From NCBI RefSeq assembly GCF_040394755.1, contig NZ_JBEBRQ010000003.1: a DNA stretch of 64,000 nt, one strand, 5' to 3'. The number at the start of each line of letters is the position of its first letter. The first letter of the stretch is position 1. The notes under the pieces are model-generated. The model did no database searches and was not told where the DNA came from. It was given only the letters and a program-made list of their open reading frames with translations. Shown here one piece after another: positions 9,634-47,414 of the stretch. This stretch comes from Castellaniella defragrans. Its GTDB lineage: Bacteria; Pseudomonadota; Gammaproteobacteria; Burkholderiales; Burkholderiaceae_B. A program made the translations under genes and the position numbers.

Positions 9634-11853
9634 TCAGCACGGCCCCCCCGCCCCCCGCCCCGCCAGCAACGCCTTCAACCGCCCCAGCGTCTGCTCGGGG
9701 TCGGCCACAGGGGCCGCGCCGGGCGCGGCGTCGGCCTCCAGACCCATCTCTTTGATGAAGCGGGACGGTTCGCGCAGCAGGTCCTCCCGCCCCCGCCGCC
9801 GCTTGCGGCACCAGCTGATGTGCAGGCTGCGCTGCGCGCGGGTGATGCCCACGTACATCAGGCGCCGTTCCTCCTGGATGCGCCCGGCAAGCGCCGCCGC
9901 CGCGGCCTCGGTGCCGTCATCGTCCTCGGACGACCCGCGATGCGGCAGCAGCCCTTCCTCGACCCCGATCAGATAGACATGAGGATATTCCAGTCCCTTG
10001 GAGGCATGCAGGGTCGAGAGCTTGACGGCATCGGGCTCCTCATCATCGGCGCGCTCGAGCATGGTCACGAGCGCGACGTGCTGCACGAGTTCAAGCAAAG
10101 TCATGTCCTCCTCGTCGGCCTTGCGCTTGAGCCATTCGATCAGTTCGAGGACGTTGGCCCAGCGGGCCTGGGCCTGGCGCTCGTCGAGCATGTCGTACAG
10201 ATGGCGCTCGTAATCGATGGCCGCCAGCAGATCGTCCAGGACCTGGGCGGCGCTATCCTCGCGGCATCCGTCCACGCCGACGGCGCCGCCTGCAATCGCA
10301 TCGGCGGCTGACGGCGCGCCGCCGGGCGGCGCGGCCTCCCACGCCGGGATCTCGCCGGCCAGCCCCGGCAGCCCGGCCTGAACCTGGGCCGGCTGCGCAA
10401 GCGGCACGGCGCCCCCGCGCCGCGCGGCGCGCGCCTGGAAACCCTGGATCAGGCGCGCAAAGCCGCGCACCGCCTCGCGCTGGCGCCCGGCGGGCAGTTC
10501 GTCCTCGCCGGCGACCAAGCCCGCCTCGAACAGCGACACCCCGCGCCGCGCCGCACTCGCGCCAAGCGCCTGCAGGGTCGCCTGCCCAACGCCGCGGCGC
10601 GGCGTGGTCATGGCGCGGATGAAGGCCGGATCGTCGCTGTCGTTGGCGATCAGGCGCAGATACGCGAGGATGTCGCGCACCTCAGCCTTGTCAAAGAAAC
10701 TCTGGCCGCCGGAAATCGTGTAGGGAATGCGCAGATTGCGCAAGGCCTGCTCCATGACGCGGGCCTGGTGATTACCGCGATACAGCACCGCGAAATCCTT
10801 CCACTGGGCCTGGCGCTCGAACCGCGCGGCCGACAGCCGCATGGCAATGGATTCGGCCTCGGCCAGATCGCTGTCCATCGGCGTCACGCGGATCGGCTCG
10901 CCCTCGCCCAGCTCGGACCACAGCGTCTTTTCAAAGACCTTCGGGTTATGCCCGATCACCCGGTTGGCCGCATGCAGGATGCGCTGCACCGAGCGATAGT
11001 TCTGTTCGAGCTTGATGACCCGCAGACGCGGATAGTCTTCGGCCAGGCGCGCCAGGTTTTCCACCGTGGCGCCGCGCCAGGCATAGATCGCCTGGTCGTC
11101 GTCGCCCACCGCCGTGAACATGGCGCGCTCGCCGCACAGGTGGCGCACCAGCTGATACTGGCAGGAATTGGTGTCCTGGTACTCGTCCACCAGCAGGTAA
11201 TGCACCCGCGCCTGCCAGCGCGCGCGCAGGCGCTCGTCGGCCGCCAGCAGCAGGGCGGGCAAGCGGATCAGGTCATCGAAATCGACCGATTGATAGGCGC
11301 GCAGCGTGGCCTCGTAGCTGCGATAGATCCTGACCGCCTCGGCCTCGCCCGCATCGCGCGCGGCCTGCGCCGCCGCATCGGGCGTCAGCATCGCGTTCTT
11401 CCAGAGGGAAATGGTCTGCTGCACGACGCGCAGCCGGGCCTTGTCGGTGGTGGCGAGCAACTCCTGGACGATGGCCAGCGCATCATTGGCATCGAGGATC
11501 GAGAACCCCCGCTTCAGCCCCGCGGCGGCAGCCTCCTCGCGCAAAAAACGCAGGCCGAGCGAGTGGAACGTGCCCACGGTCAGGCCGCGCAGCAGACGCG
11601 CATCCACCAGGCCGCGCACGCGCTCGCTCATCTCGCGGGCCGCCTTGTTGGTAAAGGTCAGGGCCACCACATTGCGGGCCTGATAACCACATTCGCGCAG
11701 CAGGTAGGCCATCTTTTGCGTGATGACCCGGGTCTTGCCGCTGCCCGCGCCGGCCAGCACCAGACAAGGCCCGTCGAGATACAGCACCGCCTCGCGCTGG
11801 CGCGCATTCAGGTCCTGGGCCACCGTCGCGCCCCGGGTCGGGCTCGCGCTCAT
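9634..11853 (-). CDS. rep: ATP-dependent DNA helicase Rep (UvrD family)
   Basis: AGAGSGKT, VDEYQD, VGDDDQAIYAWRGA, LEQNYRS, TLHASKGLEY, EERRLMYVGITRA; ATG overlaps priA stop. Confidence 0.9.
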   Translation of the reverse strand: MSASPTRGATVAQDLNARQREAVLYLDGPCLVLAGAGSGKTRVITQKMAYLLRECGYQARNVVALTFTNKAAREMSERVRGLVDARLLRGLTVGTFHSLGLRFLREEAAAAGLKRGFSILDANDALAIVQELLATTDKARLRVVQQTISLWKNAMLTPDAAAQAARDAGEAEAVRIYRSYEATLRAYQSVDFDDLIRLPALLLAADERLRARWQARVHYLLVDEYQDTNSCQYQLVRHLCGERAMFTAVGDDDQAIYAWRGATVENLARLAEDYPRLRVIKLEQNYRSVQRILHAANRVIGHNPKVFEKTLWSELGEGEPIRVTPMDSDLAEAESIAMRLSAARFERQAQWKDFAVLYRGNHQARVMEQALRNLRIPYTISGGQSFFDKAEVRDILAYLRLIANDSDDPAFIRAMTTPRRGVGQATLQALGASAARRGVSLFEAGLVAGEDELPAGRQREAVRGFARLIQGFQARAARRGGAVPLAQPAQVQAGLPGLAGEIPAWEAAPPGGAPSAADAIAGGAVGVDGCREDSAAQVLDDLLAAIDYERHLYDMLDERQAQARWANVLELIEWLKRKADEEDMTLLELVQHVALVTMLERADDEEPDAVKLSTLHASKGLEYPHVYLIGVEEGLLPHRGSSEDDDGTEAAAAALAGRIQEERRLMYVGITRAQRSLHISWCRKRRRGREDLLREPSRFIKEMGLEADAAPGAAPVADPEQTLGRLKALLAGRGAGGPC

Positions 11854-14036
11854 CAGATCTCCTGGGGATCGATCTCGATCCCCCAGCGCACGGACCGGCC
11901 CTGGGCCAGGCCATGCACCTCGGCGAGCCACGGCCGCAACAGCCGGTGCAGGGCGCCGCGCCCGTCCGCCTCGATCAGCAACTGCGCCCGTTCGACATTG
12001 GCCACGCGCAGCACCCGCAAAGGCACCGCATCGTAGACCCGCACCCCGGCACCCTCGGGCATGGCCTGCGCAAGCGCGCGCGCCTCGCCGAGAAAAGCCA
12101 GGGCATCGCGCAAATGCCGCGTCTGCGCCGTCAGCAGCGCCTGATGGGAAAACGGCGGCAGGCCGAGTTCCTCGCGCTCGGCCAGGGCAGCCTCGGCGAA
12201 ACGCGCATAATCGTGGGCGCGCAAGGCTTGGTAAACGGCCTGGTCGGGATAGTCGGTCTGCACCAGGACCTCGGCGCCGCCGGCGCGGCGGCCAGCGCGG
12301 CCCGCCACCTGCATCAGCTGCGCAAACAGCCGCTCGGGCGCGCGGAAATCCTGCGCGAACAGCATGGTGTCGGCATCGAGCACCCCCACCAGGCCGAGGC
12401 GGGCATAGTCGTGGCCCTTGGACACCATCTGGGTGCCGACCAGAATATCGGCCTCGCCCGCATGCACCTTGGAAAACAGGATCTCGGCGCTGCCCTTGCG
12501 CCGGGTCGCATCCGCATCGATGCGCAGAATGCGCGCCTCGGGAAAACGCTCGCCGAGGAACTCCTCGATGCGCTGCGTGCCGCGCCCCATGGGCCGGATG
12601 TCCTGGTCGCCGCAATCCGGGCAGGCGCGCGGCGGCGCAACGCAGTCGCCGCAATGGTGGCACTGCAAGGTATGGCGTCCGCCCGCATGACGGTGCAGCA
12701 CCGTGTAGGCGGTGCAGCGCGGGCACTGGCTGACCCAGCCGCAAGAGGCGCAGCGCAAGACCGGCGCATAGCCCCGCCGGTTGAGAAACACCAGGCTCTG
12801 TTCACCCCGATCCAGGCACGCCGCCAGCCCGTCCAGAAGCTGCGGCGTGAATCCCTGCTCCAACTGGGCGCGCCGGGTGTCGATCAGGCGCACCTCGGGC
12901 AGCGGCTGGGCCAGTGCGCGCCGGGACAGGATCACATGGCGGTAATCCCCGCGCCGGGCGCGGCGCCAGGTTTCCAGGGCGGGCGTGGCCGACCCCAGCA
13001 CGACCGGCACGCCCAGATCATGCCCGCGCCACACCGCCAGATCGCGCGCCGAATACCGCAAGCCCTCCTGCTGCTTGTACGAGGTATCGTGCTCCTCATC
13101 GACGATGATCAGACCCAGACGCGGTAGCGGCGCGAACAGCGCCAGGCGCGTCCCCAGCAGGATCGCCGCCTCGCCGCGCGCGGCCCGCAACCAGGCGCGC
13201 AGGCGCTCGCCATCGGCAAGCTTGCTGTGCATGACCGCGACCTGGCCCAGGCGCCCGCGCACGATCTGTTCGAGCTGGGGCGTCAGATTGATCTCGGGCA
13301 CCAGCAGCAGCACCTGGCGGCCCGCCGCCAGCGCATCCGCCGCGAGCCGCAGGTACAACTCGGTCTTGCCGCTGCCGGTGACGCCATGCAGCAGGGCGAC
13401 GCCAGTGGCGGCGCCGGACGTCGCCAGCGCCCGCAGATCGCGCAGCGCGGCGGACTGCTCCGCGTTCAATTCAGGCGCCGGGAAATCATTGGAATCCTCG
13501 ACGGCCTGCGGCACTACGGCGCCGGATTCAGCCACCGCATCTCCGCCCCGCGCGCGTGCCAGACCCGGACGCCGGTCGGCGCGCCGCACCGGACCGCCCG
13601 CGGCACGCGGCCCGAGATAGGCCGAAGGCTTGCGCAGGCTGGCCGGCAGGATGGGCAGCAGCACCTCGCCCAGTGGCCGGTGATAATAATTCGCCGCGAA
13701 CTCCGCCAGCCGCATCCAGTCAGCCGGCATGGGCGGCAGATCGTCCAGGACCGCCTCGATCGCCTTGACCCGCCCAGCCTCGATCGCCGGCGCCTCGCGC
13801 ACGGCCCAGACCATGCCGACCATCCGGCGCCGCCCGAAACTCACCAGGACCCGGGTGCCGGGCGCCACCGGCGCCCCGTGCGTGTAATCGAACAATCCCG
13901 GCAAGGGCACATCCAACGCAACCGCCAGGTAGATACATCCATCACCGCCAGAGACCTCGATCGGGCTCTTGACAGCCGCCTCATCCGTCGCTTCGATTCC
14001 CCGGCCAAGGCCTTTTTCATCCCCCGCCATCGTCAT
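11853..14036 (-). CDS. priA: Primosomal protein N'
   Basis: GVTGSGKTE, IVDEEHD, FLNRRGYAP, Zn-binding CxxC pairs, GTQMVSKGHD, QVAGRAGR. Confidence 0.96.
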   Translation of the reverse strand: MTMAGDEKGLGRGIEATDEAAVKSPIEVSGGDGCIYLAVALDVPLPGLFDYTHGAPVAPGTRVLVSFGRRRMVGMVWAVREAPAIEAGRVKAIEAVLDDLPPMPADWMRLAEFAANYYHRPLGEVLLPILPASLRKPSAYLGPRAAGGPVRRADRRPGLARARGGDAVAESGAVVPQAVEDSNDFPAPELNAEQSAALRDLRALATSGAATGVALLHGVTGSGKTELYLRLAADALAAGRQVLLLVPEINLTPQLEQIVRGRLGQVAVMHSKLADGERLRAWLRAARGEAAILLGTRLALFAPLPRLGLIIVDEEHDTSYKQQEGLRYSARDLAVWRGHDLGVPVVLGSATPALETWRRARRGDYRHVILSRRALAQPLPEVRLIDTRRAQLEQGFTPQLLDGLAACLDRGEQSLVFLNRRGYAPVLRCASCGWVSQCPRCTAYTVLHRHAGGRHTLQCHHCGDCVAPPRACPDCGDQDIRPMGRGTQRIEEFLGERFPEARILRIDADATRRKGSAEILFSKVHAGEADILVGTQMVSKGHDYARLGLVGVLDADTMLFAQDFRAPERLFAQLMQVAGRAGRRAGGAEVLVQTDYPDQAVYQALRAHDYARFAEAALAEREELGLPPFSHQALLTAQTRHLRDALAFLGEARALAQAMPEGAGVRVYDAVPLRVLRVANVERAQLLIEADGRGALHRLLRPWLAEVHGLAQGRSVRWGIEIDPQEI

Positions 14037-14111
14037 GCCACCCCGCCTTCAGCCACAGGCAGAAGGGAAAAGGCCTTGTCGAGACTAGGGATTGAAAGAA
14101 TGCCCGGCACC

Positions 14112-14296
14112 TGTGGATAACTTTGTGGAGAATTGACCTGTCTCATACCCTGGCAAGGGTCTGACGATATACTTTTTGTCATACATTGCGATATGACACC
14201 TATAAGTCACATATAAATCAGTGCATTACGAGTTGTGCTTAAGACAAAGCCAAGGTTCCTAGGGGAAAACCCTAACTTGCGCGAACTTGTGTATAA
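14112..14296. promoter_or_regulatory. DnaA-box cluster with IHF consensus site
   Basis: TGTGGATAA 14112-14120 (perfect), TGTGGAGAA 14124-14132, TGTGCTTAA 14234-14242, TGTGTATAA 14288-14296; IHF WATCARNNNNTTR match AATCAGTGCATTA 14216-14228. Confidence 0.7.
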
Positions 14297-14318
14297 ACAT
14301 CCCGTCCCGACGCTGATT

Positions 14319-15389
14319 TCAGCCACCATGATACCCGCGGCTGGCGGCATGAACCTCATCGACAAGCGCCGCCACGGCCTCGGGCGGCGTGAACTGGGAA
14401 ATCCCGTGCCCCAGGTTGAAAACATGGCCGCCGCGACCCACCGGCCCGAAGTCGCGCAGGATGCGGCGGGCCTCCTCGCGAATCGCCTGCTCGCCGCCAA
14501 ACAGCGCCATCGGGTCCAGATTGCCCTGCAGAGCTACCCGATCACCCACCCGGCGGCGGGCCGCTGCCAGGTTCACGGTCCAGTCCAGCCCCACAGCATC
14601 GCAGCCGCAGGCCGCGATATCCTCGATCCAGAGCCCGCCGCCCTTGGTAAAGACAATGCACGGAATCGACTGACCCTCGTATTCACGCAGCAAGCCATCG
14701 AGCACCCGGCGGGTGTAGGCCAGGGAAAATTGCTGGAACAAGCCATCGGCCAGCACCCCGCCCCAACTGTCGAACACCATCACCGCCTGCGCGCCCGCGC
14801 GGATCTGGGCATTGAGATATTCCTGGACCGCGCGCGCGTTGATATCGAGCATCCGGTGGAGCAGATCGGGGCGCTGGTAGAGCATGGTCTTGATCCGGCG
14901 ATAATCATCGCTGCCCGACCCCTCGACCATATAGCAGGCCAGCGTCCAGGGGCTGCCCGAAAAACCGATCAGCGGCACCTGACCGTCGAGCTCGCGGCGG
15001 ATCAAGGACACCGCATCAAAAACATAGCGCAACTGCTCCATGTCGGGCACGCGCAAGGCATCGACCCCCGCCTCGTCGCGCACCGGATGCGCAAAACGCG
15101 GTCCCTCGCCCGCCTGGAAACTGAGCCCCAGGCCCATGGCGTCGGGCACCGTCAGAATGTCCGAAAACAGAATCGCCGCATCCAGCGCGAAACGCCGCAG
15201 AGGCTGCAGAGTCACCTCGCAGGCATATTGCGGATTCTGCGCCAGACCCATGAACGACCCGGCCTGCGCCCGGGTCTGGTTGTACTCTGGCAGATAACGG
15301 CCCGCCTGGCGCATCAGCCAGATCGGCGTGTAGGGGACCGGTTCACGCCGCAGCGCGCGCAGGAAGACATCGTTTTTGAGCAGGGACAC
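14319..15389 (-). CDS. hemE: Uroporphyrinogen decarboxylase
   Basis: [43 protein letters not shown]; GTG start at 15389 after GAGG. Confidence 0.97.
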
Positions 15390-15421
15390 AGGCGGCAATC
15401 CTCATAGAAGTGCCGTGGATT

Positions 15422-19733: not shown

Positions 19734-21116
19734 CTACGGATGGGCATTGAGAAAACCCTTGAATACCGTCATCACGATGATTCTCAAGTCCAGCCCCAGC
19801 GACCAGTTGTTGATGTACCAAAGATCATGTTCGACGCGCTTTTCCATCTTTTCCAGCGTATCGGTCTCGCCCCGGTAGCCATTGACCTGAGCCCAGCCGG
19901 TGATGCCCGGCTTGACCTTGTGCCGCTGCATATAGGAATCGACCATGTCCATGTAGTATTCATTATGCGCCAGCGCGTGCGGGCGCGGCCCCACCAGCGA
20001 CATCCGCCCCTGCAGCACATTAAAAAGCTGCGGCAATTCATCCAGGCTGGTCCGGCGCAGAAAAGCCCCCAGCCGCGTCACGCGCGGATCGCCGAACCGC
20101 GCCTGCGTCACCTGGCCCGAGGTCTCCTCGTGCACCTCCATCGAGCGGAATTTGTATACCTTGAAGCGTTGGCCATTGATGCCCGTCCGGTACTGCTTGA
20201 AGATCACCGGCCCGCGCGACGTGCACTTGATCGCCACCGCAACCGCCAGACACACCGGCAGCACCAGGATGGACAACAGGGCTCCCAGCAGCAGATCCTC
20301 AATCCGCTTGACCAGCCGCGCCGGCCCCTCCATCGGGCTGCGGCTGAGATCCAGCGTATACAGGCCCGCCACCTCGCCCACCCGATGATTCAACAGCGGC
20401 AGATCGCCCAGATCCGGCAAATAGCGGACATCCACCGTCTGATGCCTCAATGCATGCAGGATCGACTTGATGAACCGCCCTTCCTCCAGAGGCAGGCACA
20501 GCCACAACTCATGCACCCCGCACTCCGCCACAACCTGCTCGACCGATGCCAGCCATTCCGGCGTGCGCTCGAACGCAATGGTGCGCACCACATCGTAACC
20601 ATGCTCCGGCAACAACGAGCGCCGCGCCCAGAGATCGGCCGCCGAATCCCCCGACTCGATCACCAGCACGCGCTTCAGATTGCGCCCCTGCATCCGCGTA
20701 TAACGCAGGAACAAAAAGATGACCAGGCGGAACAACGACGCCAGCACCATGCCCAGGCCAACCGTCGTCACCAGCCAGATGCGCGAATAACTGCCCGAAA
20801 CCTGCAACAAGACCGCCAGCACGGCAATCACCGCCAGCGCCAGCAGCCAGCCTGAATAAATACGCCCCAACTGCCGCAGGAAATGCCGGCCGCGCCACGA
20901 TAAATAGTTGCCCACCAGCACTTGGCAACCCACCACCACCAAGGCCAGGACCAACGTGGCCATCAGGTAATAGTCCAGCATGAACCAGTCGCCGAAACGC
21001 AGGTAATGCGACAGGTAGCTGCCGGCGACGATCAGCAGGAAATCGATGAAGCCCGCCAGCAAGGCCAGGGGGTAACGCTCGGCGAGGAGGGGGATGGGGG
21101 TTCTTGGGGAGGTCAT
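19734..21116 (-). CDS. wcaJ: Undecaprenyl-phosphate glucose phosphotransferase
   Basis: 4 TM plus Bac_transf domain: KRIEDL, YKFRSM, RRTSLDELPQL, PGITGWAQVNGYRGET. Confidence 0.9.
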   Translation of the reverse strand: MTSPRTPIPLLAERYPLALLAGFIDFLLIVAGSYLSHYLRFGDWFMLDYYLMATLVLALVVVGCQVLVGNYLSWRGRHFLRQLGRIYSGWLLALAVIAVLAVLLQVSGSYSRIWLVTTVGLGMVLASLFRLVIFLFLRYTRMQGRNLKRVLVIESGDSAADLWARRSLLPEHGYDVVRTIAFERTPEWLASVEQVVAECGVHELWLCLPLEEGRFIKSILHALRHQTVDVRYLPDLGDLPLLNHRVGEVAGLYTLDLSRSPMEGPARLVKRIEDLLLGALLSILVLPVCLAVAVAIKCTSRGPVIFKQYRTGINGQRFKVYKFRSMEVHEETSGQVTQARFGDPRVTRLGAFLRRTSLDELPQLFNVLQGRMSLVGPRPHALAHNEYYMDMVDSYMQRHKVKPGITGWAQVNGYRGETDTLEKMEKRVEHDLWYINNWSLGLDLRIIVMTVFKGFLNAHP

Positions 21117-21202
21117 GGAGCCAGAGGAGGCCGAAGGACAAAGTAATGAATTATGAGTGATTTCAGAGCCATTGCAATCGTTTCGCGATTGAAGCTACGC
21201 GG

Positions 21203-22195
21203 GTGCTATCATTGCCGCAACCCTACGCTATCTATGCAGCCTTGACCCCCCCGGCCTCCACAGCTACCGCTCCCCAGCCCTCGGTCGCCATCCTTCTGGC
21301 GACCTACCAGGGCGAACGATACCTGCCCGAGCAACTTGATTCCTTTGCACGGCAAACATACAGCAATTGGAAAGCCTGGGCATCAGATGATGGCTCTACT
21401 GACGACACCTTGCCCATTCTGCGACGCTACCAGACACAGTGGGCACCCGGCCAACTCACCATCATAAAAGGCCCTGCGCAAGGCTCCAGCCGCAACTTCG
21501 TGTCGCTGACCCATAACCCTGCGATTCAGGCCGACTACTATGCCTATTCCGACCAGGATGATATTTGGGAGGATGACAAACTGGCACGCGCTCTGGCTTG
21601 GCTGAATACCCAGGATGCGGATAAACCCGCCCTGTACTGCACCCGCACTCGTCTGGTAGACGCGCAGAACAAAGAAATCGGCCTGTCGCCCAACTTTCGG
21701 CGGCCACCCAGCTTTGCCAATGCCTTGATGCAAAACATCACCGGCGGCAACACGATGGTATTCAACAATGCGGCTTGCCGCCTGCTGCGCTCTGTACCCG
21801 AAGACACCGAAATCGTCATCCACGACTGGTGGGTCTATCTGGTGGTCACCGCCTGTGGTGGGGCTGTGTGCTTTGACCCAGTGCCGGGACTGCGCTATCG
21901 ACAGCACGAAAATAACCTGATCGGCATGAGCGCTGGTGGCCCGCCTCTGGTCAGCCGCATCGCCAAGCTGTTCGGAACAACGCTGCGGGAAAATTCAGAT
22001 ATACACCTGAAGGCGCTTCAAATACTGAAGCAGCACATGACGCCAGAAAACCGCTGCATTATGGAAATCTTCAGCAAAGCCAGAGCAAACTGGCTGTTGC
22101 CAAGGCTAGCGGGATATAAAAAAGCCGGGGTCTATCGACTGACATTCACGGGTAACATCGGCATGGTCATCGCCTCTGTACTCAACCGCCTGTAG
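21203..22195 (+). CDS. GT2 glycosyltransferase (RgpB-like rhamnosyltransferase); start uncertain
   Basis: ILLATYQGERYLPEQLDS, SDDGSTD, YSDQDDIW, IHDWW, YRQHENN. Confidence 0.85.
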   Translation: MLSLPQPYAIYAALTPPASTATAPQPSVAILLATYQGERYLPEQLDSFARQTYSNWKAWASDDGSTDDTLPILRRYQTQWAPGQLTIIKGPAQGSSRNFVSLTHNPAIQADYYAYSDQDDIWEDDKLARALAWLNTQDADKPALYCTRTRLVDAQNKEIGLSPNFRRPPSFANALMQNITGGNTMVFNNAACRLLRSVPEDTEIVIHDWWVYLVVTACGGAVCFDPVPGLRYRQHENNLIGMSAGGPPLVSRIAKLFGTTLRENSDIHLKALQILKQHMTPENRCIMEIFSKARANWLLPRLAGYKKAGVYRLTFTGNIGMVIASVLNRL

Positions 22196-22269
22196 GCTCA
22201 CCGCCAGAATCATTGCCGGGCAATTAGACGCACGCCCACAACCATCATCGCGGCACAACCGCAAACATC

Positions 22270-23256
22270 CTAGTTTCGGCGGAAATTTCTGAGACTGGAG
22301 GCAATCGCTCGGAGAGGCGCGGTGATCCTCCAAGATTTTGATTTTCTATATGAGGCCTCGGCCGCCAGACTCTGTTGGAGTTGATGTTTAAGACGAGAAA
22401 TTTCCCGTTCGGCATCTTGCGGCCATATTGAATTAACCACGCTTGATGTCTTGAAAGAATTAACCATGGCCTGCCAGCTGCTTATGATTTCTTCTTGATC
22501 CTCGCTGGAACGCAATGCCACAAAAAATTCAAGCTGATCTCGTTCGGTATCATGAAAGTCAACACATGCGAAGCCCAGCATACCGGTATGCGCCAACTCA
22601 AGAAACAGTTTGGCGAATGACTCCGGAGTGAAAACCCAGCAATGAACATCACGATACACCCCGTTTTCCAGCGAGTCTCGTGCCATATCCAACGCGTCCG
22701 AGAAGGAGTATTTCCTTCCCAGATTTTCAGCATCCACCCGACCTGCCCATACCCCCCCACAATCCACATCCCTGACCTTAAGAAAAAAATCCAATATCAG
22801 ATAGGGATGGGGTACTCGGGATTTTGTCAAATAACCAAGAAAAACCTCTGACAGCGTAGTTTCCGAGCGAAGAATATCGAACGTAAAACGCCGATCAGGA
22901 ACAACCAAACGCAACTGTCCGCCCGTATTCAGAATACAACGTACCTCAGACAACCAAGTGATTAGATCAGGCACATGCTCAACAACATGCGACGCAATAA
23001 CATAATCAACAGTGCGCCCATTCAATGCATTGCTTAGCGTATTCTTCCCCCATACGCCATCCACACCGACAATCGCATCAGCGTCGACATCGGGATCATT
23101 TTTATATTTTTCCCTTAGCGACTTAGTGTCCTCATGATCCACATACAGAATATTCCCTTCGCCTTTCGAGACGATGGGTCGGTGCAGCGGCCCTATTTCA
23201 GCACCAACACTGTTAACAATATCCAATCCACTGATTATCTTTTGCTTGCGGTCCAT
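22270..23256 (-). CDS. SAM-dependent methyltransferase with short C-terminal coiled coil
   Basis: EIGPL motif I variant, DYVIASHVVEHVPD, GGQLRLVVPD; ends ..EISRLKHQLQQ..SKSWRITAPLR. Confidence 0.8.
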   Translation of the reverse strand: MDRKQKIISGLDIVNSVGAEIGPLHRPIVSKGEGNILYVDHEDTKSLREKYKNDPDVDADAIVGVDGVWGKNTLSNALNGRTVDYVIASHVVEHVPDLITWLSEVRCILNTGGQLRLVVPDRRFTFDILRSETTLSEVFLGYLTKSRVPHPYLILDFFLKVRDVDCGGVWAGRVDAENLGRKYSFSDALDMARDSLENGVYRDVHCWVFTPESFAKLFLELAHTGMLGFACVDFHDTERDQLEFFVALRSSEDQEEIISSWQAMVNSFKTSSVVNSIWPQDAEREISRLKHQLQQSLAAEASYRKSKSWRITAPLRAIASSLRNFRRN

Positions 23257-23339
23257 CAGCCTTTTACTCCAATTCTTGATAAACGAATTACTTCGCCAGA
23301 ATTTGCAGCCAGGAACACCACCAGAAGCGATCCCATGGA

Positions 23340-24239
23340 TTAACCACGATCCAGCATCCAGCGCAAGGTGTCATGCAACAACGGAGGTTGCCAATTTCCG
23401 ATTAGCCTGCGCAACCTCTCCGAACTACCACAAAGCATCTTGACTTCATTTTTACGGATAAAATCAGGATTGATTTCAATATCAAGCCGATGCCCCGTGA
23501 TGTCTTGGCACATCCCCAGCACCTCATGCAGGGAATGGGCCAGACCAGTGCTGATATTGACAGTCTGACCAATGGCATTGGATCGTTCAAGCAATTCTTT
23601 ATAGGCACGCACAACCATGCGCACATCGCCAAAATCCCGATAAACCTGAATATTTCCAAGCTCGATGGAAACGGCTTTCTTGCGAAAGTGCGACACGATC
23701 TTGGGAATAAGAAAACTTTCCGCCTGACCCACGCCGGTATAATTGAACGGACGCGTGATGATGATAGGCAGCTTATCGGCATAAAGCTTGGCCATGTACT
23801 CCATGGCCAGCTTGCTGACGGCATAATCATTGGCGGGCGCCGGTACGACAGTTTCATCAATCATGCCTTCTGATGCATTGCCATACACATTGGCACTGCT
23901 AGCCAGCAAAATTGCTTTGGGCAGCCTGGGCAACCGGACCAGGGCCTGCAATAAATTCCTGGTGCCCAGCAGGTTGACATGATAAAAGGCATTTGCATTG
24001 CCATGCCCGACAAATGCCATAGCCGCCAAGTGGACGACCATATCAGGAGCTATCTGTCTGACCGCCTGCTCAAGCGCCCCTTCGTTCAATAAATTGACCT
24101 GCACACGATCGCGGCCAGATGGCGCGTGCGCAGTAAGGCCTACGACACGATATCCAGAAGACTCCAGTTCCTTCCGCATATAACAGCCGGTGAAACCATC
24201 GTCTCCCGTTACGAGTACGGTATTTCCATACCCGCTCAT
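23340..24239 (-). CDS. rmd: GDP-4-keto-6-deoxy-D-mannose reductase (Rmd-like)
   Basis: GDDGFTG, HLAAMAFV, ASSANVYG, YAVSK, RPFNYTGVGQ, RDFGDVR; coupled to gmd by TAATG. Confidence 0.8.
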   Translation of the reverse strand: MSGYGNTVLVTGDDGFTGCYMRKELESSGYRVVGLTAHAPSGRDRVQVNLLNEGALEQAVRQIAPDMVVHLAAMAFVGHGNANAFYHVNLLGTRNLLQALVRLPRLPKAILLASSANVYGNASEGMIDETVVPAPANDYAVSKLAMEYMAKLYADKLPIIITRPFNYTGVGQAESFLIPKIVSHFRKKAVSIELGNIQVYRDFGDVRMVVRAYKELLERSNAIGQTVNISTGLAHSLHEVLGMCQDITGHRLDIEINPDFIRKNEVKMLCGSSERLRRLIGNWQPPLLHDTLRWMLDRG

Positions 24240-25282
24240 TAGAAGGAAAATCCTTGCATATTGCGCCGGATGTCTTCCTGCACCATCATTTGGCACAATT
24301 GCTCCAGCATGGTATGAGGAGCCCATCCCAACTTGGCCTTGGCCTTTCCAGGATCACCGATCAACAGTTCTACCTCCGCAGGACGATAGAACTTTGGGTT
24401 AACGGAAACGAGTACCTTGCCAGTCCTGGCATCCCTGCCTACTTCATTCTCAGCCTTACCTGAAAATTCAAGTGTATATCCGGCAGCACCAAACGCCATG
24501 GACACGAAATCCCGGACAGATTCTGTACGATTGGTCGCCACCACATATGTATCAGGCTCATCCGCCTGCAGCATACGCCACATTGCATCCACATATTCCT
24601 TGGCATAACCCCAGTCGCGCTTGGCATCCAGGTTGCCAAGTTCCACGGCATCGAGCCTGCCCAATTTTATCTTGGCCACCGAATCGGTGATCTTTCGTGT
24701 GACGAACTCGCGACCACGCAGGGGGGATTCATGATTGAACAGAATCCCGCTTGCCCCGAATATGCCGTAGGATTCGCGGTAGTTGATAGTCATCCAATGC
24801 GCATACAACTTGGCAACCCCATAGGGACTGCGAGGATAAAATGGCGTTGATTCTGTTTGCGGGATAGTTTGTACCTTCCCGAACATTTCAGAAGTCGAAG
24901 CCTGATAATAACGCACCCTCGGATTGACGATGCGGATAGCCTCCAGGAGATTGACGGCACCTAAACCGGTAATCTCGGCCGTGGTGATAGGCTGCTCGAA
25001 GGAAACACCGACAAAGCTCTGCGCCGCCAAGTTATACACCTCGGTCGCCTCCGTGCCTTCCAGCAGGCGGATACTCGCGGAAAGGTCGGTTAAATCATAT
25101 TCAAGCAGATGCAGGCCTGGATGTTTGTCCACGCCGAGCTCCTCGATACGCCAGAAATTGACAGAACTGGTCCGACGGTAGGCACCATAGACAGCGTAGC
25201 CTTTTTCCAGCAGCAACTGCGCCAAATATGCGCCATCTTGACCTGTGATGCCAGTAATAATGGCTTTTTTAACAGTCGTCAT
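24239..25282 (-). CDS. gmd: GDP-mannose 4,6-dehydratase
   Basis: [46 protein letters not shown]. Confidence 0.97.
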
Positions 25283-25371
25283 GATTTAATCTACCAATAA
25301 GTCAATGGATGATGTCCTCTGCGGCGTTGATAGCCAACGGCCCGCACCACCCTTCTGGGACCCAGCATGAT

Positions 25372-26838
25372 TCATCTCTCTATCCGTCCGTAGATATCTT
25401 CGAATCGCACAATATCGTCCTCACCCAGGTACTCACCGCTTTGCACCTCAATCAAAACCAAGTCAATTACCCCTGGATTTTCCAACCGATGCTTATGACC
25501 AGCCGGTATAAAAACAGATTCATTACTATTCAACATCAGTTCTCGCTCGCCATTCACCACATGCGCCATGCCGCTGACAACCACCCAATGCTCACTGCGA
25601 TGATGGTGCAGTTGCAGTGATAAAGATCCTTTCGGCTTGACCACAATGCGCTTGATCTTGAAACGCTCGCCTTCTTCCAGCGTGGTATAGGTACCCCATG
25701 GGCGATGTACGGTCTGGTGCACCAGATGCGCCGTATGCCCGCTCTGCTTCAGAGCGCTGACTATATGCTTGACATCCTGCGCATCATTTTTGTGCGCCAC
25801 CAGCACGGCATCAGGGGTATCAACGACAATCAGATCTTGCACACCTACCAAAGCGGCAAGACGATGTTTACTCTGAACATAGTTATTCCTGGCATTGTAG
25901 GTAACCGCTTGGCCCACGATACGGTTGCCATCGCTGCCAGGTTCGACCAGTTCGCTCATGGCATTCCACGAACCAATGTCGCTCCAGCCAATATCGCAGG
26001 GTATCGTTGCTACCTTGGTAGATCGTTCCATCAGGGCATAGTCGATGGAAATTTCCGGTACTTGCGCAAAGGCATCGGCATCCAGGTTCAGATGGCGGTA
26101 CCCTTTGCCCTCCGCCATACGCGATTTTTCCAAAGTAGCTATCACGGCGCTCAACACATCATCGGCGAGTTTTTCCAGCTCTTCCAGGACCGTGCCTACG
26201 CGGAAGCAAAACATCCCGGAATTCCAGAAATAATTTCCCGCAGCCACATATTCCTTGGCGGAGGCGTCGTCTGGCTTTTCAACAAAACGCTTTACCTTGA
26301 ACCCGCTTTGCAATGGGCTCGCGCTATCGATCTCGATGTAGCCGAATCCTGTCTCTGGGTATTGGGCATGCATCCCGAAAGTGACCAGCCAGCCATGAGT
26401 AGCCAGATCTGCGGCTTTTTGCACCGCCATGGAAAACGCAGCTTCGTCCTTGATGAGATGATCCGCGGGCAGCACCAGCATGATAGCGTCTGGACCATGC
26501 GCCTGCTTCAGATGCACGGCAGCGGATGCCACGGCGGCAGCCGTGTTGCGGCCAAAGGGCTCGAGAATATAACTTTGCTGAAAATGAGCGTCAACCTTGC
26601 GGTATTCGTCCTCGGTCTTGAACAACAGCTCCCGGTTTGTCACGGTCAGCACTTCATTGACCCCGGCCTGGGCGCAGGCCCGCAGAAAGGTCTTCTGGAT
26701 CAGATTCTGCCCGTCAGGCAAGGTCATGAAGGGCTTGGGATGCGCCTGGCGCGATATAGGCCAGAGGCGGCTGCCAACCCCGCCAGACATAATGACAGGG
26801 ATTAATTTCACAGACGATACCTCAGGTATTGTGTTCAC
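25372..26838 (-). CDS. manC: Mannose-1-phosphate guanylyltransferase / mannose-6-phosphate isomerase
   Basis: GGVGSRLWPISR..PKPF, EPFGRNTA, WNSGMF, WSDIGSW; cupin RPWG, SLQLHHHRSEHW. Confidence 0.96.
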   Translation of the reverse strand: MNTIPEVSSVKLIPVIMSGGVGSRLWPISRQAHPKPFMTLPDGQNLIQKTFLRACAQAGVNEVLTVTNRELLFKTEDEYRKVDAHFQQSYILEPFGRNTAAAVASAAVHLKQAHGPDAIMLVLPADHLIKDEAAFSMAVQKAADLATHGWLVTFGMHAQYPETGFGYIEIDSASPLQSGFKVKRFVEKPDDASAKEYVAAGNYFWNSGMFCFRVGTVLEELEKLADDVLSAVIATLEKSRMAEGKGYRHLNLDADAFAQVPEISIDYALMERSTKVATIPCDIGWSDIGSWNAMSELVEPGSDGNRIVGQAVTYNARNNYVQSKHRLAALVGVQDLIVVDTPDAVLVAHKNDAQDVKHIVSALKQSGHTAHLVHQTVHRPWGTYTTLEEGERFKIKRIVVKPKGSLSLQLHHHRSEHWVVVSGMAHVVNGERELMLNSNESVFIPAGHKHRLENPGVIDLVLIEVQSGEYLGEDDIVRFEDIYGRIER

Positions 26839-26991
26839 TACGGATTGCCTCTTGCTGTAAATTAGCGAATTCCATCGACCGGGACTACCTGCTCGACCAA
26901 CCTGGCATCCAAGAAATCACGCATTTGCGCAACGCGGCGAAACGCGCCATTTCATCGGTCAAAATATTATGCGTAATTCAAGACTTACGAA

Positions 26992-28764
26992 TTACCATTC
27001 AGCCACTTGGCAGTCTACCCTGTCTTTAGGCAATCGAGGATTATAGTATGGGTCCCGCTGTATCTTATCAGGCCACTTGGATAGAAAATGCATTCTATCC
27101 GCCTCATCAACATCGCGCCTAGGAAGAGATGATCCCTCATAGTGATAAAGCAATGCATAAGGCGAATAAACAATCCTATAGCCCGCATCACGCATCCGAA
27201 GGCAGAAGTCTATATCGTTATAGTCAATTCTTAGTTTCGGATCGAACATCCCGACTTTTTCTATCACACTCATGCGAGTCGCCAACACAGCCCCCGTGAC
27301 CGCCGAATAATTCCGGATCAAATGCGTGAAGCCGCAATACCCAATCTCGCTGGATGGCAGATTATGGAATATATGTGTCGTCAAGCCGTTGACACCCAAA
27401 ACGACGCCCGCATGCTGCAAACGCCCATTTGGATAGATAAGCCTGGCCCCAACAGCCCCTATATCTGCCCGGCGAGAAAATGATAGCAATGCCTCAATCC
27501 AGTCTGGCGCGACGACCTCAATATCATCATTGAGCATGATGACATCTTCCGTTGTCACCAACCCCAACGCATGATTTGTTTTATCTGGGAAATTAAACGG
27601 CCCCTCGAATTCATATTGAGCCACCTTGACACCCCACTTCAAAAATCGATCATGGATATCCTCCGGCAATTTGCCATCATCCAGCACGATCAGATTGAAA
27701 TTTCTGAAGGTCGAACGCTCAATAATACTTTTAACCGCATTCTCAACCAATAAAATTTTTCCTCGGCCTTCCACCTCTCTGGTACAGCTCCCTGTAAGTA
27801 TCACTAAAGTGACAGGACGAGACGCATCGACAGGCCATTTAACGCGAAAACTTCCAGTAAACAAACCATCAACAACCTCAGCGGTCGGCTCCTGACTCTG
27901 CACGAAATCCGTGAGCGCCTTCTTGGCGTTGATCAAGGCGGTAGGCTTGGCATCAACTACCGCAGCCGCCGAGCCTGGAATTTTTCTCCAATGATAAAGC
28001 ACGTGAGGGATATGTTCCACCCGCCTTGCCTTCGCCGTGGCACGCAGCGCCAAATCATAATCTTGCGAGCCGGTAAACTCATCTCGCAGTCCGCCTAACT
28101 CAAGAAACAGCGATTTTCTGATCACCATAAAGTGCAGAACATACATTACCGAAAGAAGATGCTCGGGAGACCAATCCGGTTTCAAGTAAGGCTCGCTACG
28201 ACTTCCGTCCTCTTCGAGCTTGTCTTCATCCGTGTATAGAACATCAATGTCCGAGCCATTCTCAATCGCCTGGACGACAAGCTCCAGAGCCTTCGGCTCC
28301 AGGGTATCGTCATGATCCAAGAAGGCAATAAAATGGCCTGTGGCAAACTCAGCCGCAAGATTGGTCGCCCTGGCAATATGCAGATTTTTTGACGACCTGA
28401 CGATTTTGATGCGGGGGTCAGATCCTCGGTATTTTTCCAATACATGTACGGTTTCCTTCGAGCTAGATGCATCGTCGCACAAACATAGCTCCCAATTCGT
28501 ATATGTTTGATGCAAAACCGACTCTATCGCCTCATCAAGAATTTTTGCCGGAGTATTGTAAACAGGCACCAAGATACTTATCCGTGTACTGCCTCGAACT
28601 ACAGGTCCGTATGAGGCATTCCGCTCAGATGCCTGTGTAGGCCGAACGGCGGTCTTCCCAAGAACCCGTGCAGCTTGCGAGACCGCCATTTTTAAACCTA
28701 CGGCACGCGCAACAACCAAAAATCGACTGACCAAATGTAGAAATCGCTTCATTGACATCTTCAA
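26992..28764 (-). CDS. Two-domain GT2 glycosyltransferase
   Basis: ILVPVYNT..DDASS..FLDHDD..YTDED..GSQDYD; second domain LNDDIEV, AVTGAVL, NDIDFCLR. Confidence 0.9.
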   Translation of the reverse strand: MKMSMKRFLHLVSRFLVVARAVGLKMAVSQAARVLGKTAVRPTQASERNASYGPVVRGSTRISILVPVYNTPAKILDEAIESVLHQTYTNWELCLCDDASSSKETVHVLEKYRGSDPRIKIVRSSKNLHIARATNLAAEFATGHFIAFLDHDDTLEPKALELVVQAIENGSDIDVLYTDEDKLEEDGSRSEPYLKPDWSPEHLLSVMYVLHFMVIRKSLFLELGGLRDEFTGSQDYDLALRATAKARRVEHIPHVLYHWRKIPGSAAAVVDAKPTALINAKKALTDFVQSQEPTAEVVDGLFTGSFRVKWPVDASRPVTLVILTGSCTREVEGRGKILLVENAVKSIIERSTFRNFNLIVLDDGKLPEDIHDRFLKWGVKVAQYEFEGPFNFPDKTNHALGLVTTEDVIMLNDDIEVVAPDWIEALLSFSRRADIGAVGARLIYPNGRLQHAGVVLGVNGLTTHIFHNLPSSEIGYCGFTHLIRNYSAVTGAVLATRMSVIEKVGMFDPKLRIDYNDIDFCLRMRDAGYRIVYSPYALLYHYEGSSLPRRDVDEADRMHFLSKWPDKIQRDPYYNPRLPKDRVDCQVAEW

Positions 28765-28829
28765 ATCTTTTGGGGAAATGTACTTTTCACTTCATAATAT
28801 ATTCAAAACGCATCGCGCAGCATCTCCCC

Positions 28830-31800
28830 TTATGAATCAGGATTGTATTGCCAGATACGATTCAACTCGGAACGCATCACCTGCATTGTTTTTTCACTGG
28901 AAAATAGACTTCCAGAATATGCCAGGCCTTTTTTCCCCAAATCATCCGCATAGCTTCTATCAGAAAATATTTTGCGCATCCCTTCGCGCATTGAAGCAGA
29001 CAATGGATCGGCCCACAAGTAATGTGGAGGATAGGGTGCGTTGCCTTCTCCAACCTCGACAAGACGATATTCCAGAGGCCATGCTGAGTCAGGGGTCACA
29101 AAATCAGCAGCCCCACCATAAGGCGTGGCAATCACGGGTTTTCCCGCTCTCATCGCTTCCAATATAGTCAGCCCGAGCCCCTCGGATCTGTGCGGTGAAA
29201 CATAACAATCAATCAGTTGAAAGAGATCATGCATTTCATGATCTTCCAGCGCCCTGTCCATGAAAATTATATCTGGACGCTGCCGAGCCATCGAAACAAG
29301 CTTCTGGATATTAACATCTTCAGGATTTGAATAATGTATTTTGATTAGACAACACGCACCATCATCCGGCCCGAATTCTTCAAGATAAGCATTGAGCAAT
29401 GCCAACGGATTCTTGCGGCCTAGAATGCTCCCCGCATCCGCCGCATAGAAAAAGATAAATCGATCATCGGGGAGATCAAAATCATGCCTTTTCATTGAAC
29501 ATGAGGTCTGTGATTGTTCCAGCATTGGACGAACCACACGGACAGGAGTCCTGGACACCGCGGCGACCGATCGTGCAATGAACTCACTTGCACACCAGAT
29601 CTCATCGAAACGATGGATTATTTCATGCCATTCAGGTAGGAGGGAAGACAGCTCCCAATATACTATCGCAACGTTATAGCAGCAGGGCGCCACAAGCTCT
29701 CTTAATGGCGCACAGTCGAGCAGACTCGCGTTTGCAAGCAGGTCAAGATTGAGATGAACGATATTGATCGGCTGCTTATCAATCGATGGATACTCGATGG
29801 GCGTTCGACGGAGCCGCTCGAATCCCAAGCGCCATGGAACGACATTGATTGGTATATCGGTCTCCAGCAAACAGGAGACATAACCTCTCGCGCTGATACT
29901 TACGCCATTGACAAACTCCACAGGTCCTATGAAATTGACCCCTAGTTTTTTATGTAAGGGTCTGATCCACGTCCGCAGGGCGGGGACTTTGTTGGCAGCG
30001 GATGTACGCCGCAGATTATTCTCTTTTGCCTTAAGTATGGCGCTCACATCGCATTGGGCAGGCTTGCCTGGCGCGGCCATTATTTCGATCTTGCTGCCCC
30101 ATAATGTGGTATCTCGCACTTCAGTTAGACCAATATGGCCATTTTCCTGCGTAGCGATTAGACCAAAGAGGCGTTCCATTGCATGCGCAGTTTTACCGTC
30201 ATTACTACCGTCCTCGGCTTCTAGAGATATGCCTGCATCGGTCAACTGTAATAGTTTTTTCAATGTCCGAGGCCCCATCCAGAACATGGTGCCGGCAAAA
30301 AATCCCCATTCGGGCGGCAGCGGCTTTCCTGGATAGAGTTGTCCTGCCAGCTTTTTGAGCTTTGGGCCATTATCCATGATGAGAGTAGGCCCCGAAACGT
30401 ATAGATCCTTCGCGCCAACCAGCAATAGGTCGGGGTCGGCCTGGAAACAACGGAGGATGCCACTGACAAGATACTTGTTATCCAGCACGCCCTGCAGCAT
30501 TAGCGTTCGCCACATTTCGGGCAAAGTCTGCCCCTTCTTTGTATGAAGCTTGCAGATCGCAGTGTAATTGCTGGCCGCGAGTAATGGTAGAACGGTCAAA
30601 AATGGGCCAATATCACGTCCGGCGTTACTGGTCGTAAGCACCCTCGCGGCAGGAAACAAACGATGCACCTGCTTCCGGAGTGCTTCCACATTGGAATCCT
30701 CGGATACAGACACATATAAATCAAAGACTATAGGAATATTGCGGAGAAAGAGTACAATCTCGCTCCAAAGATCCTCATAATAAAGATGCACCACAACTGC
30801 GATTTTGACATCTCGAAGCAATATGCCTGGATCGAAGGCTCGTTCCTCCTGTACCAATCCATGCTCAAGATAGTGGGATAGCAGATTCACATCACGAGAG
30901 GCCAACTCTGGATGCTGTGTTAGATACCACTTGCCGTCAAAAAGCGGGGCCGGCTCCCGGTTTTCATATATACCACGCCTCAAATAATGAGCAAGCGGAT
31001 TGATCCCGGTACGAACCACATCTTTATTCCGCATGAGATACCAGCTGGTATCGAATACGGGATTCGGATTCCGCCTTTCATCAACGCCAAATCTAAGATA
31101 ATGAACCAATGGGTTTACGCCGGAACTTGCCACATCCGGATATTGCGCCAGATACCAACTTGTAGTGAAAAGCGGATTGGGGTTGCGCCCTTCGATAGCG
31201 CCATGCATTAGGTAATGCCGTATTGGATCCTTGCCTTTTTCCGCAACATCCGGGTACTGTTTCAAATACCAATCGCAATCAAACAACCCGCTGGCGCAAA
31301 GCGATTTACGATCACGCGCAACCATGAGTATCTTCTGTATTGGATCGAATACCAAACGCATCAAATTAGCCAGCGGCAAGCACACATTGCGCATGAACCA
31401 ACGCAGCGGGTATGTCAGGCGCCAGATTTTGGAGCTGCGTAGCGCAGCGATCTCCTGCTGCAGCGATGCTATGGCCTGGCTCTTTTCGGTAATTTCGAGA
31501 TCGAGGGTTCTGACATGTTGCCGCAACACATCTGCATCGCGTGTTAGTTCGGTGACCCGATGAGATTCCTCAACGACGGTTTTCTGTGCCTGCCCCAACC
31601 GCTCTGACAACTGCGTTATTTCCTCCAAGGGATTGAATTTCCTTGAACTCCATTGATTATTTGTTTGCGGTGGCGCCACCGACTCGTATGTTGACAGATC
31701 GAAATGACCGGGAACAACTTTCTCCTGCGTTCCCGCAATAACGCGCTTACCCAACAAATTCTCTGCGACCGTTCGCTTCCGAACCACACACATTGAGTTT

Positions 31801-32432
31801 ATGAATTCGATGGAATGGATGGAGGCCAATTCCTCGATCTCAAAGTCGAGCCCATATTTATCACGGAATCCGGACAGCAAATCCATCGGTGGCTTCTCGA
31901 TGCCCCAGTGCTCATAGTTGACGATATCGGCCAGATGCTTGAAGAAACCAATGGATGAATATGGATCATACAGGCCACCATCAAACCCCTCCCAATAGCT
32001 GCAGTGCATATCCTCTGCAACAAACAGCCCGCCATCAACGAGATATTTGAAATACCGAACAAAGCTCTGAATGATATCTCCAGAGGTGTGCGACCCATCG
32101 TCAATGACGATGTCGAATCGATCGGAAATAGCGATAATGCATTCTTGCGTGGCGTCTTTGTTCGCATCGCCAACAACAACAGTAATCCGAGGATCATCGT
32201 ACCGAAGACGCGCACAGTCCGGATTGATGTCGCAACCCACAAGATGCACCGCATTTGGAAAATATTTTCCCCAGATATCCAATGACCCGCCATTTTGTAC
32301 ACCTATCTCCAGAAGATTGACGGGATGCTCTTGATAAGGATCGAACAAGCGATCGTATTCTTCCAGATATAAACTCCATTTATCGGAAACTTTCCCGGTG
32401 TGTTCACGATAGAGTTGCTTTAATTTGGTCAT
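28830..32432 (-). CDS. 1200-aa multidomain O-polysaccharide enzyme: methyltransferase - coiled coil - 4x38-aa repeats - RgpF-like GT - GT4
   Basis: LEIGVQNGGS/IVIDDGSH (class I MTase); heptad region; VVHLYY..GRDIGPF..KLHTKK..FAGTMFW..HAMERLF (RgpF); SEGLGLTILEAM (GT4). Confidence 0.85.
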   Translation of the reverse strand: MTKLKQLYREHTGKVSDKWSLYLEEYDRLFDPYQEHPVNLLEIGVQNGGSLDIWGKYFPNAVHLVGCDINPDCARLRYDDPRITVVVGDANKDATQECIIAISDRFDIVIDDGSHTSGDIIQSFVRYFKYLVDGGLFVAEDMHCSYWEGFDGGLYDPYSSIGFFKHLADIVNYEHWGIEKPPMDLLSGFRDKYGLDFEIEELASIHSIEFINSMCVVRKRTVAENLLGKRVIAGTQEKVVPGHFDLSTYESVAPPQTNNQWSSRKFNPLEEITQLSERLGQAQKTVVEESHRVTELTRDADVLRQHVRTLDLEITEKSQAIASLQQEIAALRSSKIWRLTYPLRWFMRNVCLPLANLMRLVFDPIQKILMVARDRKSLCASGLFDCDWYLKQYPDVAEKGKDPIRHYLMHGAIEGRNPNPLFTTSWYLAQYPDVASSGVNPLVHYLRFGVDERRNPNPVFDTSWYLMRNKDVVRTGINPLAHYLRRGIYENREPAPLFDGKWYLTQHPELASRDVNLLSHYLEHGLVQEERAFDPGILLRDVKIAVVVHLYYEDLWSEIVLFLRNIPIVFDLYVSVSEDSNVEALRKQVHRLFPAARVLTTSNAGRDIGPFLTVLPLLAASNYTAICKLHTKKGQTLPEMWRTLMLQGVLDNKYLVSGILRCFQADPDLLLVGAKDLYVSGPTLIMDNGPKLKKLAGQLYPGKPLPPEWGFFAGTMFWMGPRTLKKLLQLTDAGISLEAEDGSNDGKTAHAMERLFGLIATQENGHIGLTEVRDTTLWGSKIEIMAAPGKPAQCDVSAILKAKENNLRRTSAANKVPALRTWIRPLHKKLGVNFIGPVEFVNGVSISARGYVSCLLETDIPINVVPWRLGFERLRRTPIEYPSIDKQPINIVHLNLDLLANASLLDCAPLRELVAPCCYNVAIVYWELSSLLPEWHEIIHRFDEIWCASEFIARSVAAVSRTPVRVVRPMLEQSQTSCSMKRHDFDLPDDRFIFFYAADAGSILGRKNPLALLNAYLEEFGPDDGACCLIKIHYSNPEDVNIQKLVSMARQRPDIIFMDRALEDHEMHDLFQLIDCYVSPHRSEGLGLTILEAMRAGKPVIATPYGGAADFVTPDSAWPLEYRLVEVGEGNAPYPPHYLWADPLSASMREGMRKIFSDRSYADDLGKKGLAYSGSLFSSEKTMQVMRSELNRIWQYNPDS
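30830..31286 (-). repeat. Four 114-bp (38-aa) intragenic repeats
   Basis: LFDCDWYLKQYPDV..HYL..G..EGRNPNP / LFTTSWYLAQYPDV.. / VFDTSWYLMRNKDV.. / LFDGKWYLTQHPEL..; unit starts 31286, 31172, 31058, 30944. Confidence 0.9.
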
Positions 32433-45976: not shown

Positions 45977-46073
45977 TTGGCAAACATGCACGTGAATACT
46001 CAATTCCGTGCCCACAACATTGAAAAGGAATCCGCGAATGGTCCGACGCAGCAAGCTCACCACAATGGGCGCT

Positions 46074-47381: not shown

Positions 47382-47414
47382 GAAGGCCTAACAGGATATA
47401 ATGACAACCGAAAA

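Follow-up and report, generated by a model that had tools for sequence, protein, structure and literature searches.

The gap between hemE and priA in an Alcaligenaceae betaproteobacterium carries a cluster of boxes for the replication initiator DnaA and a putative IHF site, and it raises the question of whether this DNA starts replication, controls the neighbouring genes, or regulates DnaA itself. In E. coli, DnaA is turned off by datA and on by the DARS sites. To our knowledge, the control of DnaA by such non-coding sites (datA, DARS1, and DARS2) is known almost entirely from this bacterium. Here, the cluster has been analysed within a window of 64 kb (the whole stretch of DNA under analysis) and compared with the priA loci of relatives, with copies found in metagenomes, and with the datA and DARS loci of E. 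coli MG1655, which were read directly.

The gap between hemE and priA and its motifs

The gap covers positions 14037–14318 and has a GC content of 0.475, against 0.64–0.71 in its flanks; its 282 bp agree with the lower-GC gap of about 280 bp described in a first-pass annotation of the same DNA. The three genes around it are all encoded on the minus strand and keep the same orientation across the gap. These are hemE (14319–15398; TIGR01464, 417 bits), which reads toward the element and whose stop codon lies 22 bp before the distal DnaA box; priA (11853–14036; NCBIfam NF004067, 894 bits), with its ATG at 14036, 75 bp downstream of box II; and the gene of the Rep helicase (9634–11853; TIGR01074, E = 6e-198), whose ATG overlaps the priA stop codon by 1 nt. 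The sequence TGATG at 11851–11855 contains both the priA stop and the rep start, and this one-base overlap indicates that priA and rep form a translationally coupled operon. The closest relatives of PriA are found in Castellaniella (75% identity) and other Alcaligenaceae. The genes around the gap belong to catabolic, transport, and polysaccharide functions. Two islands of low GC (0.38–0.53, compared with approximately 0.6–0.7) are also present in the window. The first one, at 21000–35000, contains gmd, manC, and several glycosyltransferase genes, adjoins wcaJ, and was probably acquired horizontally; the second one is located at 45000–50000.

In the direction of the minus strand, the element consists of TTATACACA, 59 bp, an IHF site that belongs to the plus strand, 83 bp, TTCTCCACA, 3 bp, and TTATCCACA, with a total span of 185 bp (14112–14296). 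The distal high-affinity DnaA box (14288–14296, minus strand), which is the counterpart of box 2 or box 3 of datA, and the high-affinity box II (14112–14120, minus strand) are both exact copies of the consensus TTATNCACA. The low-affinity box III (14124–14132, minus strand) has one mismatch and is placed 3 bp 5' of box II, the junction being TTCTCCACA-AAG-TTATCCACA; no other pair of boxes with this 3-bp spacing occurs within the 64-kb window. The putative IHF site, AATCAGTGCATTA (14216–14228, plus strand), fits WATCARNNNNTTR exactly, shows one mismatch with respect to the stricter consensus WATCAANNNNTTR, and ends 83 bp from box III. At 14098–14106 (plus strand), 5 bp from box II, the position of an inverted box I is occupied by the degenerate sequence GAATGCCCG, in which four of the eight specified positions are wrong. 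Another box with one mismatch, TTAAGCACA (14234–14242, minus strand), falls outside the conserved module. In summary of their orientation, the four boxes of the gap with no more than one mismatch all point in the same direction on the minus strand, and four more sites with two mismatches are distributed over both strands.

Most of these motifs had already been pointed out in the first-pass annotation, and its two exact boxes, the one-mismatch box paired at 3 bp, and the exact IHF consensus are indeed present. Its statement that all boxes face the same way holds for the four boxes with at most one mismatch, but not for the sites with two mismatches, which lie on both strands. It had also mentioned a single two-mismatch box, which could be any one of the four sites of this kind. 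As for the inverted repeat TGTCATA-N8-TATGACA (14177–14198), also listed there, it can be found in the sequence, but it is not conserved in relatives and a repeat of this kind appears in about 12% of random gaps (P ~0.12); it is probably a product of chance.

The same question of chance was addressed for the boxes with 30,000 random gaps of 282 bp, generated by a Markov-1 model with the same dinucleotide make-up. In these gaps, two or more exact boxes were obtained with P = 1e-4, and four or more boxes with at most one mismatch with P = 2e-4, while four boxes on one strand appeared in none of the 30,000. The motif cluster is real and non-random. Two other features of the window deserve mention. 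A third exact DnaA box, TTATCCACA, is located at 52654–52662, over the start codon of a minus-strand gene; it was discarded as a second element, as it has neither a partner box nor an IHF site, and approximately one such box per window is expected by chance. In addition, a small palindrome, TAGGGGAAAACCCTA, lies at 14260–14274, in the stretch that separates the IHF site from the distal box, and similar GGGG-A4/T4-CCC hairpins are found in the same place in the loci L007, L008, and L001. This palindrome may be the remnant of a hemE terminator within the module.

Conservation, variation, and location of the module

The conservation of the element was studied in a sample of 80 priA loci from species-representative genomes of beta- and gammaproteobacteria. 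The region upstream of priA can be aligned with the window in eight relatives (Alcaligenaceae and Lautropia), which makes nine sequences in all. In this alignment, a block of 23 bp that contains box III, TTYTCCMCAAAGTTATCCACAGG, is invariant in the nine sequences, even though the PriA proteins of this set are only 56–75% identical to that of the window. Box II is likewise without variation in this alignment. The distal box (GTTRTGCACA) and the central TAAGTNATTGATTT, which is the IHF site as it appears on the complementary strand, are also kept. The spacers between these motifs are free in sequence and constrained in length.

For more distant genomes, a family profile (nhmmer) was used, derived from 88 copies of the module from other genomes and metagenomes, with the window and E. 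coli not among them. In the 64-kb window this profile has a single significant match, at 14101–14301 on the minus strand (E = 7e-12 for a search space of 78 kb, 40.3 bits, profile positions 4–217 of 228). The profile detected the module in 40 of the 80 priA loci. In all 40 it immediately precedes priA on the upstream side and has the priA orientation, and hemE may or may not be found upstream of it. The module therefore tracks priA and not hemE, because it is also present where hemE is absent. Conservation of the boxes in relatives had been named in the first-pass annotation as a check of its proposal, and the boxes are conserved, both in the nine-sequence alignment and in these 40 loci; the exception is the box at 14234–14242, which the alignment of relatives does not keep.

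The wider survey has also revealed which parts of the module are fixed and which ones vary. Box II is always TTATCCACA and lies 3 bp from box III. The IHF site does not share the strand of the boxes but lies on the opposite one, and it ends 83–87 bp upstream of box III. In relatives, a distal box (TTRTGCACA) with the direction of boxes II and III is found 172–193 bp upstream of box II. An inverted third box, placed 5 bp beyond box II, is present in many lineages, among them the sampled families of Xanthomonadales, Oxalobacteraceae, Hydrogenophilaceae, and Chromatiales. This box I has 0–2 mismatches in Xanthomonadales, Oxalobacteraceae, and others, and 3–8 mismatches in Alcaligenaceae and Comamonadaceae; in two families it has been lost with the rest of the module unchanged. 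Another variable trait is the distal arm, from the distal box to the IHF site, which measures approximately 56–60 bp in Alcaligenaceae, including the window, versus approximately 70–72 bp in most other lineages. The difference amounts to one helical turn, and the clade with the short arm (Alcaligenaceae) is also devoid of box I. Finally, whole modules repeated in tandem have been observed between hemE and priA, with three copies in one Oxalobacteraceae-like MAG (L009, 2956–3951), two copies in an Oxalobacteraceae-like MAG (L010, 1335–1985), and four copies in Acidovorax (L029, 2509–3769).

Copies of the module away from priA are frequent in metagenomes. A scan with the triple-box pattern yielded at least 120 loci (L083–L202), and priA is the downstream gene in only about 20 of the 120 listed. 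Other downstream genes among the listed loci code for citrate synthase (at least 17), M48 peptidase (at least 7), and ExbB (at least 5), and the upstream genes among them code for HemN/HemW-like radical SAM proteins (at least 21–22), XseA (at least 8–9), and ECF sigma factors (at least 6). The neighbouring genes lie on either strand around the listed copies. Within these same copies, the exact IHF sites cluster at 84–87 bp and the exact distal boxes at 187–193 bp. Some arrangements are recurrent: the order HemN/HemW-like radical SAM gene, module, and citrate synthase gene is found in at least 11 loci with GC contents from 0.39 to 0.70, and the order XseA, module, and a gene of an unnamed family in at least five. 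The varied neighbours and the tandem arrays indicate that the module is a self-contained, relocatable unit. This argues for a function independent of the neighbouring genes, as is the case of datA and DARS, and is compatible with a local effect on priA.

Proposed control of the DnaA pool and alternative explanations

With moderate confidence, we propose that DnaA and IHF assemble on the element of the window and that it controls DnaA, as a putative member of the datA/DARS class that is most likely datA-like in this copy. Such an element would act on the pool of active DnaA and would not start replication. Firstly, DnaA would occupy the two strong boxes, TTATACACA at 14288–14296 and TTATCCACA at 14112–14120, and the DnaA molecule on box II would recruit a second one, head-to-tail, onto the weak box TTCTCCACA, located 3 bp upstream. 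The binding of IHF at 14216–14228 would then bend the DNA sharply and join the distal DnaA to the proximal pair, in such a way that one DnaA oligomer could close across the bend. The most likely outcome would be a DnaA sink that promotes hydrolysis of the ATP bound to DnaA and restrains re-initiation. Read-through from hemE into this element, which sits between hemE and priA, may displace IHF; there is a parallel, although only by analogy, in the read-through from glyVXY that evicts IHF from datA (PMC10950094). As a side effect, the bound DnaA may dampen the expression of priA–rep. That the proteins bind, that the DNA bends, and which way DnaA is affected are predictions made from the motifs, their geometry and conservation, the membership of the family, and the match to datA and DARS.

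The datA-like role is favoured because the boxes of this copy share a single direction and box I has been lost; the essential boxes of datA likewise share a single direction (PMC5742627). It is also favoured because box I is dispensable in evolution, like the inverted box 4 of datA, which is stimulatory only (PMC10950094), and unlike box I of DARS, which is essential in E. coli (PMC6868365). On the other hand, the effect may run in the opposite direction, because the core of the family is the core of DARS and the best match in E. coli, DARS1, acts in that way. The location of the weak partner box, which lies on the opposite arm with respect to datA, also speaks against a datA-like element. In addition, a role restricted to the DnaA pool has to face the constant position and orientation of the module, which in 40 of the 80 loci lies immediately upstream of priA and in the priA direction; this would fit a transcriptional role too.

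A purely transcriptional operator is, in fact, the alternative that survives best, although we consider it unlikely. According to this explanation, DnaA and IHF would repress, activate, or block the transcription of priA–rep, which might be read through from hemE, and the nucleotide state of DnaA would be unaffected. DnaA is an established transcription factor (PMC13438810), and the operator would be well placed, directly upstream of priA across beta- and gammaproteobacteria, with box II ending 75 bp before the priA ATG in the window. Moreover, no terminator-like site was found between hemE and the module, and the RNA-seq contigs of Achromobacter relatives are unbroken from hemE through the module to priA. 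The DNA of the module is therefore transcribed in those relatives; these contigs show continuity and do not resolve start sites. Against the operator, a scan of 13900–14450 for sigma-70-like promoters found no promoter-like site, so the priA promoter could not be placed. Complete modules are also found beside the genes of citrate synthase, M48 peptidase, ExbB, and others, with neighbours in mixed orientation, and whole modules form tandem arrays. Finally, an operator would not need so rigid an architecture, which extends over approximately 185–230 bp and combines a distal box with a phased IHF site. Nevertheless, a role as operator and a role in the control of the DnaA pool are not mutually exclusive.

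The proposed control of the DnaA pool could also work in the opposite direction, although this is quite improbable for the copy of the window. In this case, the element would be a DARS-type reactivator that strips ADP from ADP–DnaA and regenerates ATP–DnaA, as DARS1 and DARS2 do in E. coli. The members of the family from Xanthomonadales, Oxalobacteraceae, and others reproduce exactly the orientations and the spacers of the DARS1 and DARS2 cores, and the family profile matches DARS1 with E = 4.7e-10 (search space of 78 kb). The IHF site is located on the side of box III and has the orientation of the site IBS2 of DARS2, one turn further out (83–87 bp in the family, 83 bp in the window, versus 74 bp). 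However, the box I of the window is degenerate, and the arm beyond the IHF site holds a DnaA box; in DARS2, that arm has Fis sites.

The other two explanations are far less probable. A cluster of DnaA boxes with an IHF site in a lower-GC gap is what would be expected of the chromosomal replication origin, oriC, but oriC has been rejected on the grounds of skew, gene orientation, neighbours, tandem copies, and multiple contexts. The GC skew of the plus strand does not change its sign at the gap, with values of -0.07 to -0.08 to the left of the gap and of -0.11 to -0.12 to its right; the excess of C over G on both sides, without a skew flip, had already been noticed in the first-pass annotation. 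The genes hemE, priA, and rep share one orientation, without any divergence. None of dnaA, dnaN, gidA, parAB, and rpmH is among the annotated neighbours in the window, and the Pfam families most often found in the genes nearest to the metagenomic copies listed (at least 120) include no origin markers. The presence of two to four tandem copies and of several genomic contexts is not origin-like either, and in the complete chromosome of Dyella the locus is found at 5.33 of 5.70 Mb. It is true that origins adjoin hemE in alphaproteobacteria, an argument also raised in the first-pass annotation, but this rule is irrelevant here because the organism is a betaproteobacterium of the Alcaligenaceae, and the element follows priA even in loci without hemE. 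That annotation had nevertheless preferred a datA/DARS-like locus, or a control of priA–rep by DnaA, over oriC, and this preference is supported by the datA geometry, by the DARS core of the family, by the conservation of the boxes in relatives, by the constant sign of the skew, by the shared gene orientation, and by the lack of origin markers among the annotated neighbours. The second explanation takes the element for the gene of a non-coding RNA or for the 5' leader of priA. It would account for the transcription of this conserved intergenic DNA in relatives, but it is highly improbable, as the conservation is confined to protein-binding motifs with spacers free in sequence, Rfam gave no match at the gathering threshold (the sole permissive match was a chance miRNA, E = 7), and RNAalifold found 0 pairs and no consensus fold in the nine-sequence alignment.

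Comparison with datA, DARS, and other DnaA-box clusters

The comparison of the module with known elements has implications beyond this locus. From its sequence, it appears to be a widely conserved non-coding module of the datA/DARS type, and we have not found it described outside the close relatives of E. coli. In the literature searched, no paper was found that ties datA or DARS to priA, to Betaproteobacteria, or to Xanthomonadales, and a prior mention is possible. Fujimitsu (2009) reportedly gives DARS candidates from a range of species. In the supplement of Kasho (2014), the conservation of DARS2 is reported for eight gammaproteobacteria close to E. coli only, and DARS-like sites have been described in Vibrio cholerae at uvrB and mutH (PMC6090056). 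The present module is conserved in Betaproteobacteria, in Xanthomonadales, and in further gammaproteobacteria (Chromatiales, for instance), and it would carry the control of the cell cycle by DnaA sites to large groups, among them Bordetella, Achromobacter, Burkholderiales, and Xanthomonadales. The comparison also suggests that datA and DARS share one architecture. Natural variants, with or without the head-to-head box and in one to four copies, would be useful to distinguish DnaA inactivation from reactivation. Finally, the link to priA, which codes for the replication-restart helicase, hints at a coupling between the control of initiation and the capacity for restart.

A more general hypothesis can be put forward only tentatively. 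The module might represent the ancestral element controlling the nucleotide state of DnaA in proteobacteria, in which case datA, DARS1, and DARS2 would be diverged and relocated copies of it and box I would be the switch. If this were true, the shared plan would be formed by a distal element, a phased IHF site, and the box III–II pair, with or without an inverted box I, and whether a copy reactivates or inactivates DnaA would depend on box I being present or lost. The DnaA cycle of beta- and basal gammaproteobacteria would then run through modules located at priA, at hemW–gltA, at xseA, and elsewhere, and the priA copy of Alcaligenaceae would be specialised as an inactivator.

Among the known systems, the titration clusters of Bacillus subtilis and Streptomyces resemble the module in being clusters of DnaA boxes outside the origin; an IHF site, a fixed geometry, or a head-to-head core is not known to us from these clusters. 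In PMC5742627, these non-origin clusters are cited as restraining initiation.

The module can also be compared with the DARS elements. In MG1655, the DARS1 core is TTATCCACT-ATTCC-TGTGGATAA-CCA-TGTGTATTA and the DARS2 core is TTATTCACC-TTTTC-TGTGGATAG-AGT-TGTGAAGAA, an assignment that for DARS2 is backed by deletion primers (PMC4585315). Both cores are formed by box I, 5 bp, an inverted box II, 3 bp, and box III, and the full core of the family matches them exactly in order, orientations, and spacers when the opposite strand is read. The window shares with DARS1 and DARS2 the box II–III pair in the same direction, the 3-bp spacer, and a perfect box II followed by a G, whereas box I placed head-to-head with box II at 5 bp is shared by the relatives only. 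In the same search space of 78 kb, the family profile matches DARS2 with E = 1.7e-3, with IBS2 aligned to the IHF site of the module. Another difference is the genomic location, as the module is linked to priA and the E. coli elements are near uvrB and mutH. Beside the DARS2 core, the rppH–mutH gap of E. coli MG1655 contains a second triple box, TTATCCCAG-5-TGTGGATAA-3-GGTGTAAGA (L082, 4452–4486), to which the module profile gives E = 0.013 in that search space. An IHF-consensus site, AATCAGAGAATTG (L082, 4571–4583), is found exactly 84 bp beyond the box III of this second triple box, just upstream of mutH.

The minimal datA of MG1655 consists of box 7 (TTGTAAACA), 3 bp, box 2 (TTATCCACA), 56 bp, an IHF site on the opposite strand, 84 bp, and box 3. 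The family profile matches it with E = 2.8e-4 (search space of 78 kb), with boxes 7–2 aligned to boxes III–II. There are differences between both elements: the weak partner box occupies opposite arms in the window and in datA, the inverted accessory box of the relatives lies 5 bp from box II and that of datA 3 bp from box 3, and the genomic contexts are not the same, with the sequence similarity confined to the motifs. Nevertheless, both elements are intergenic and lie shortly downstream of a gene whose transcription runs the same way as the boxes point, glyVXY in E. coli and hemE here. A low-affinity box is found 3 bp 5' of a high-affinity TTATCCACA that is followed by a G in each of them, although on different arms of the IHF site. 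Moreover, in both of them two high-affinity boxes with the same direction surround a single IHF site on the opposite strand, with box–IHF intervals of 59 and 83 bp in the window versus 56 and 84 bp in datA, and total spans of 185 and 183 bp, respectively.
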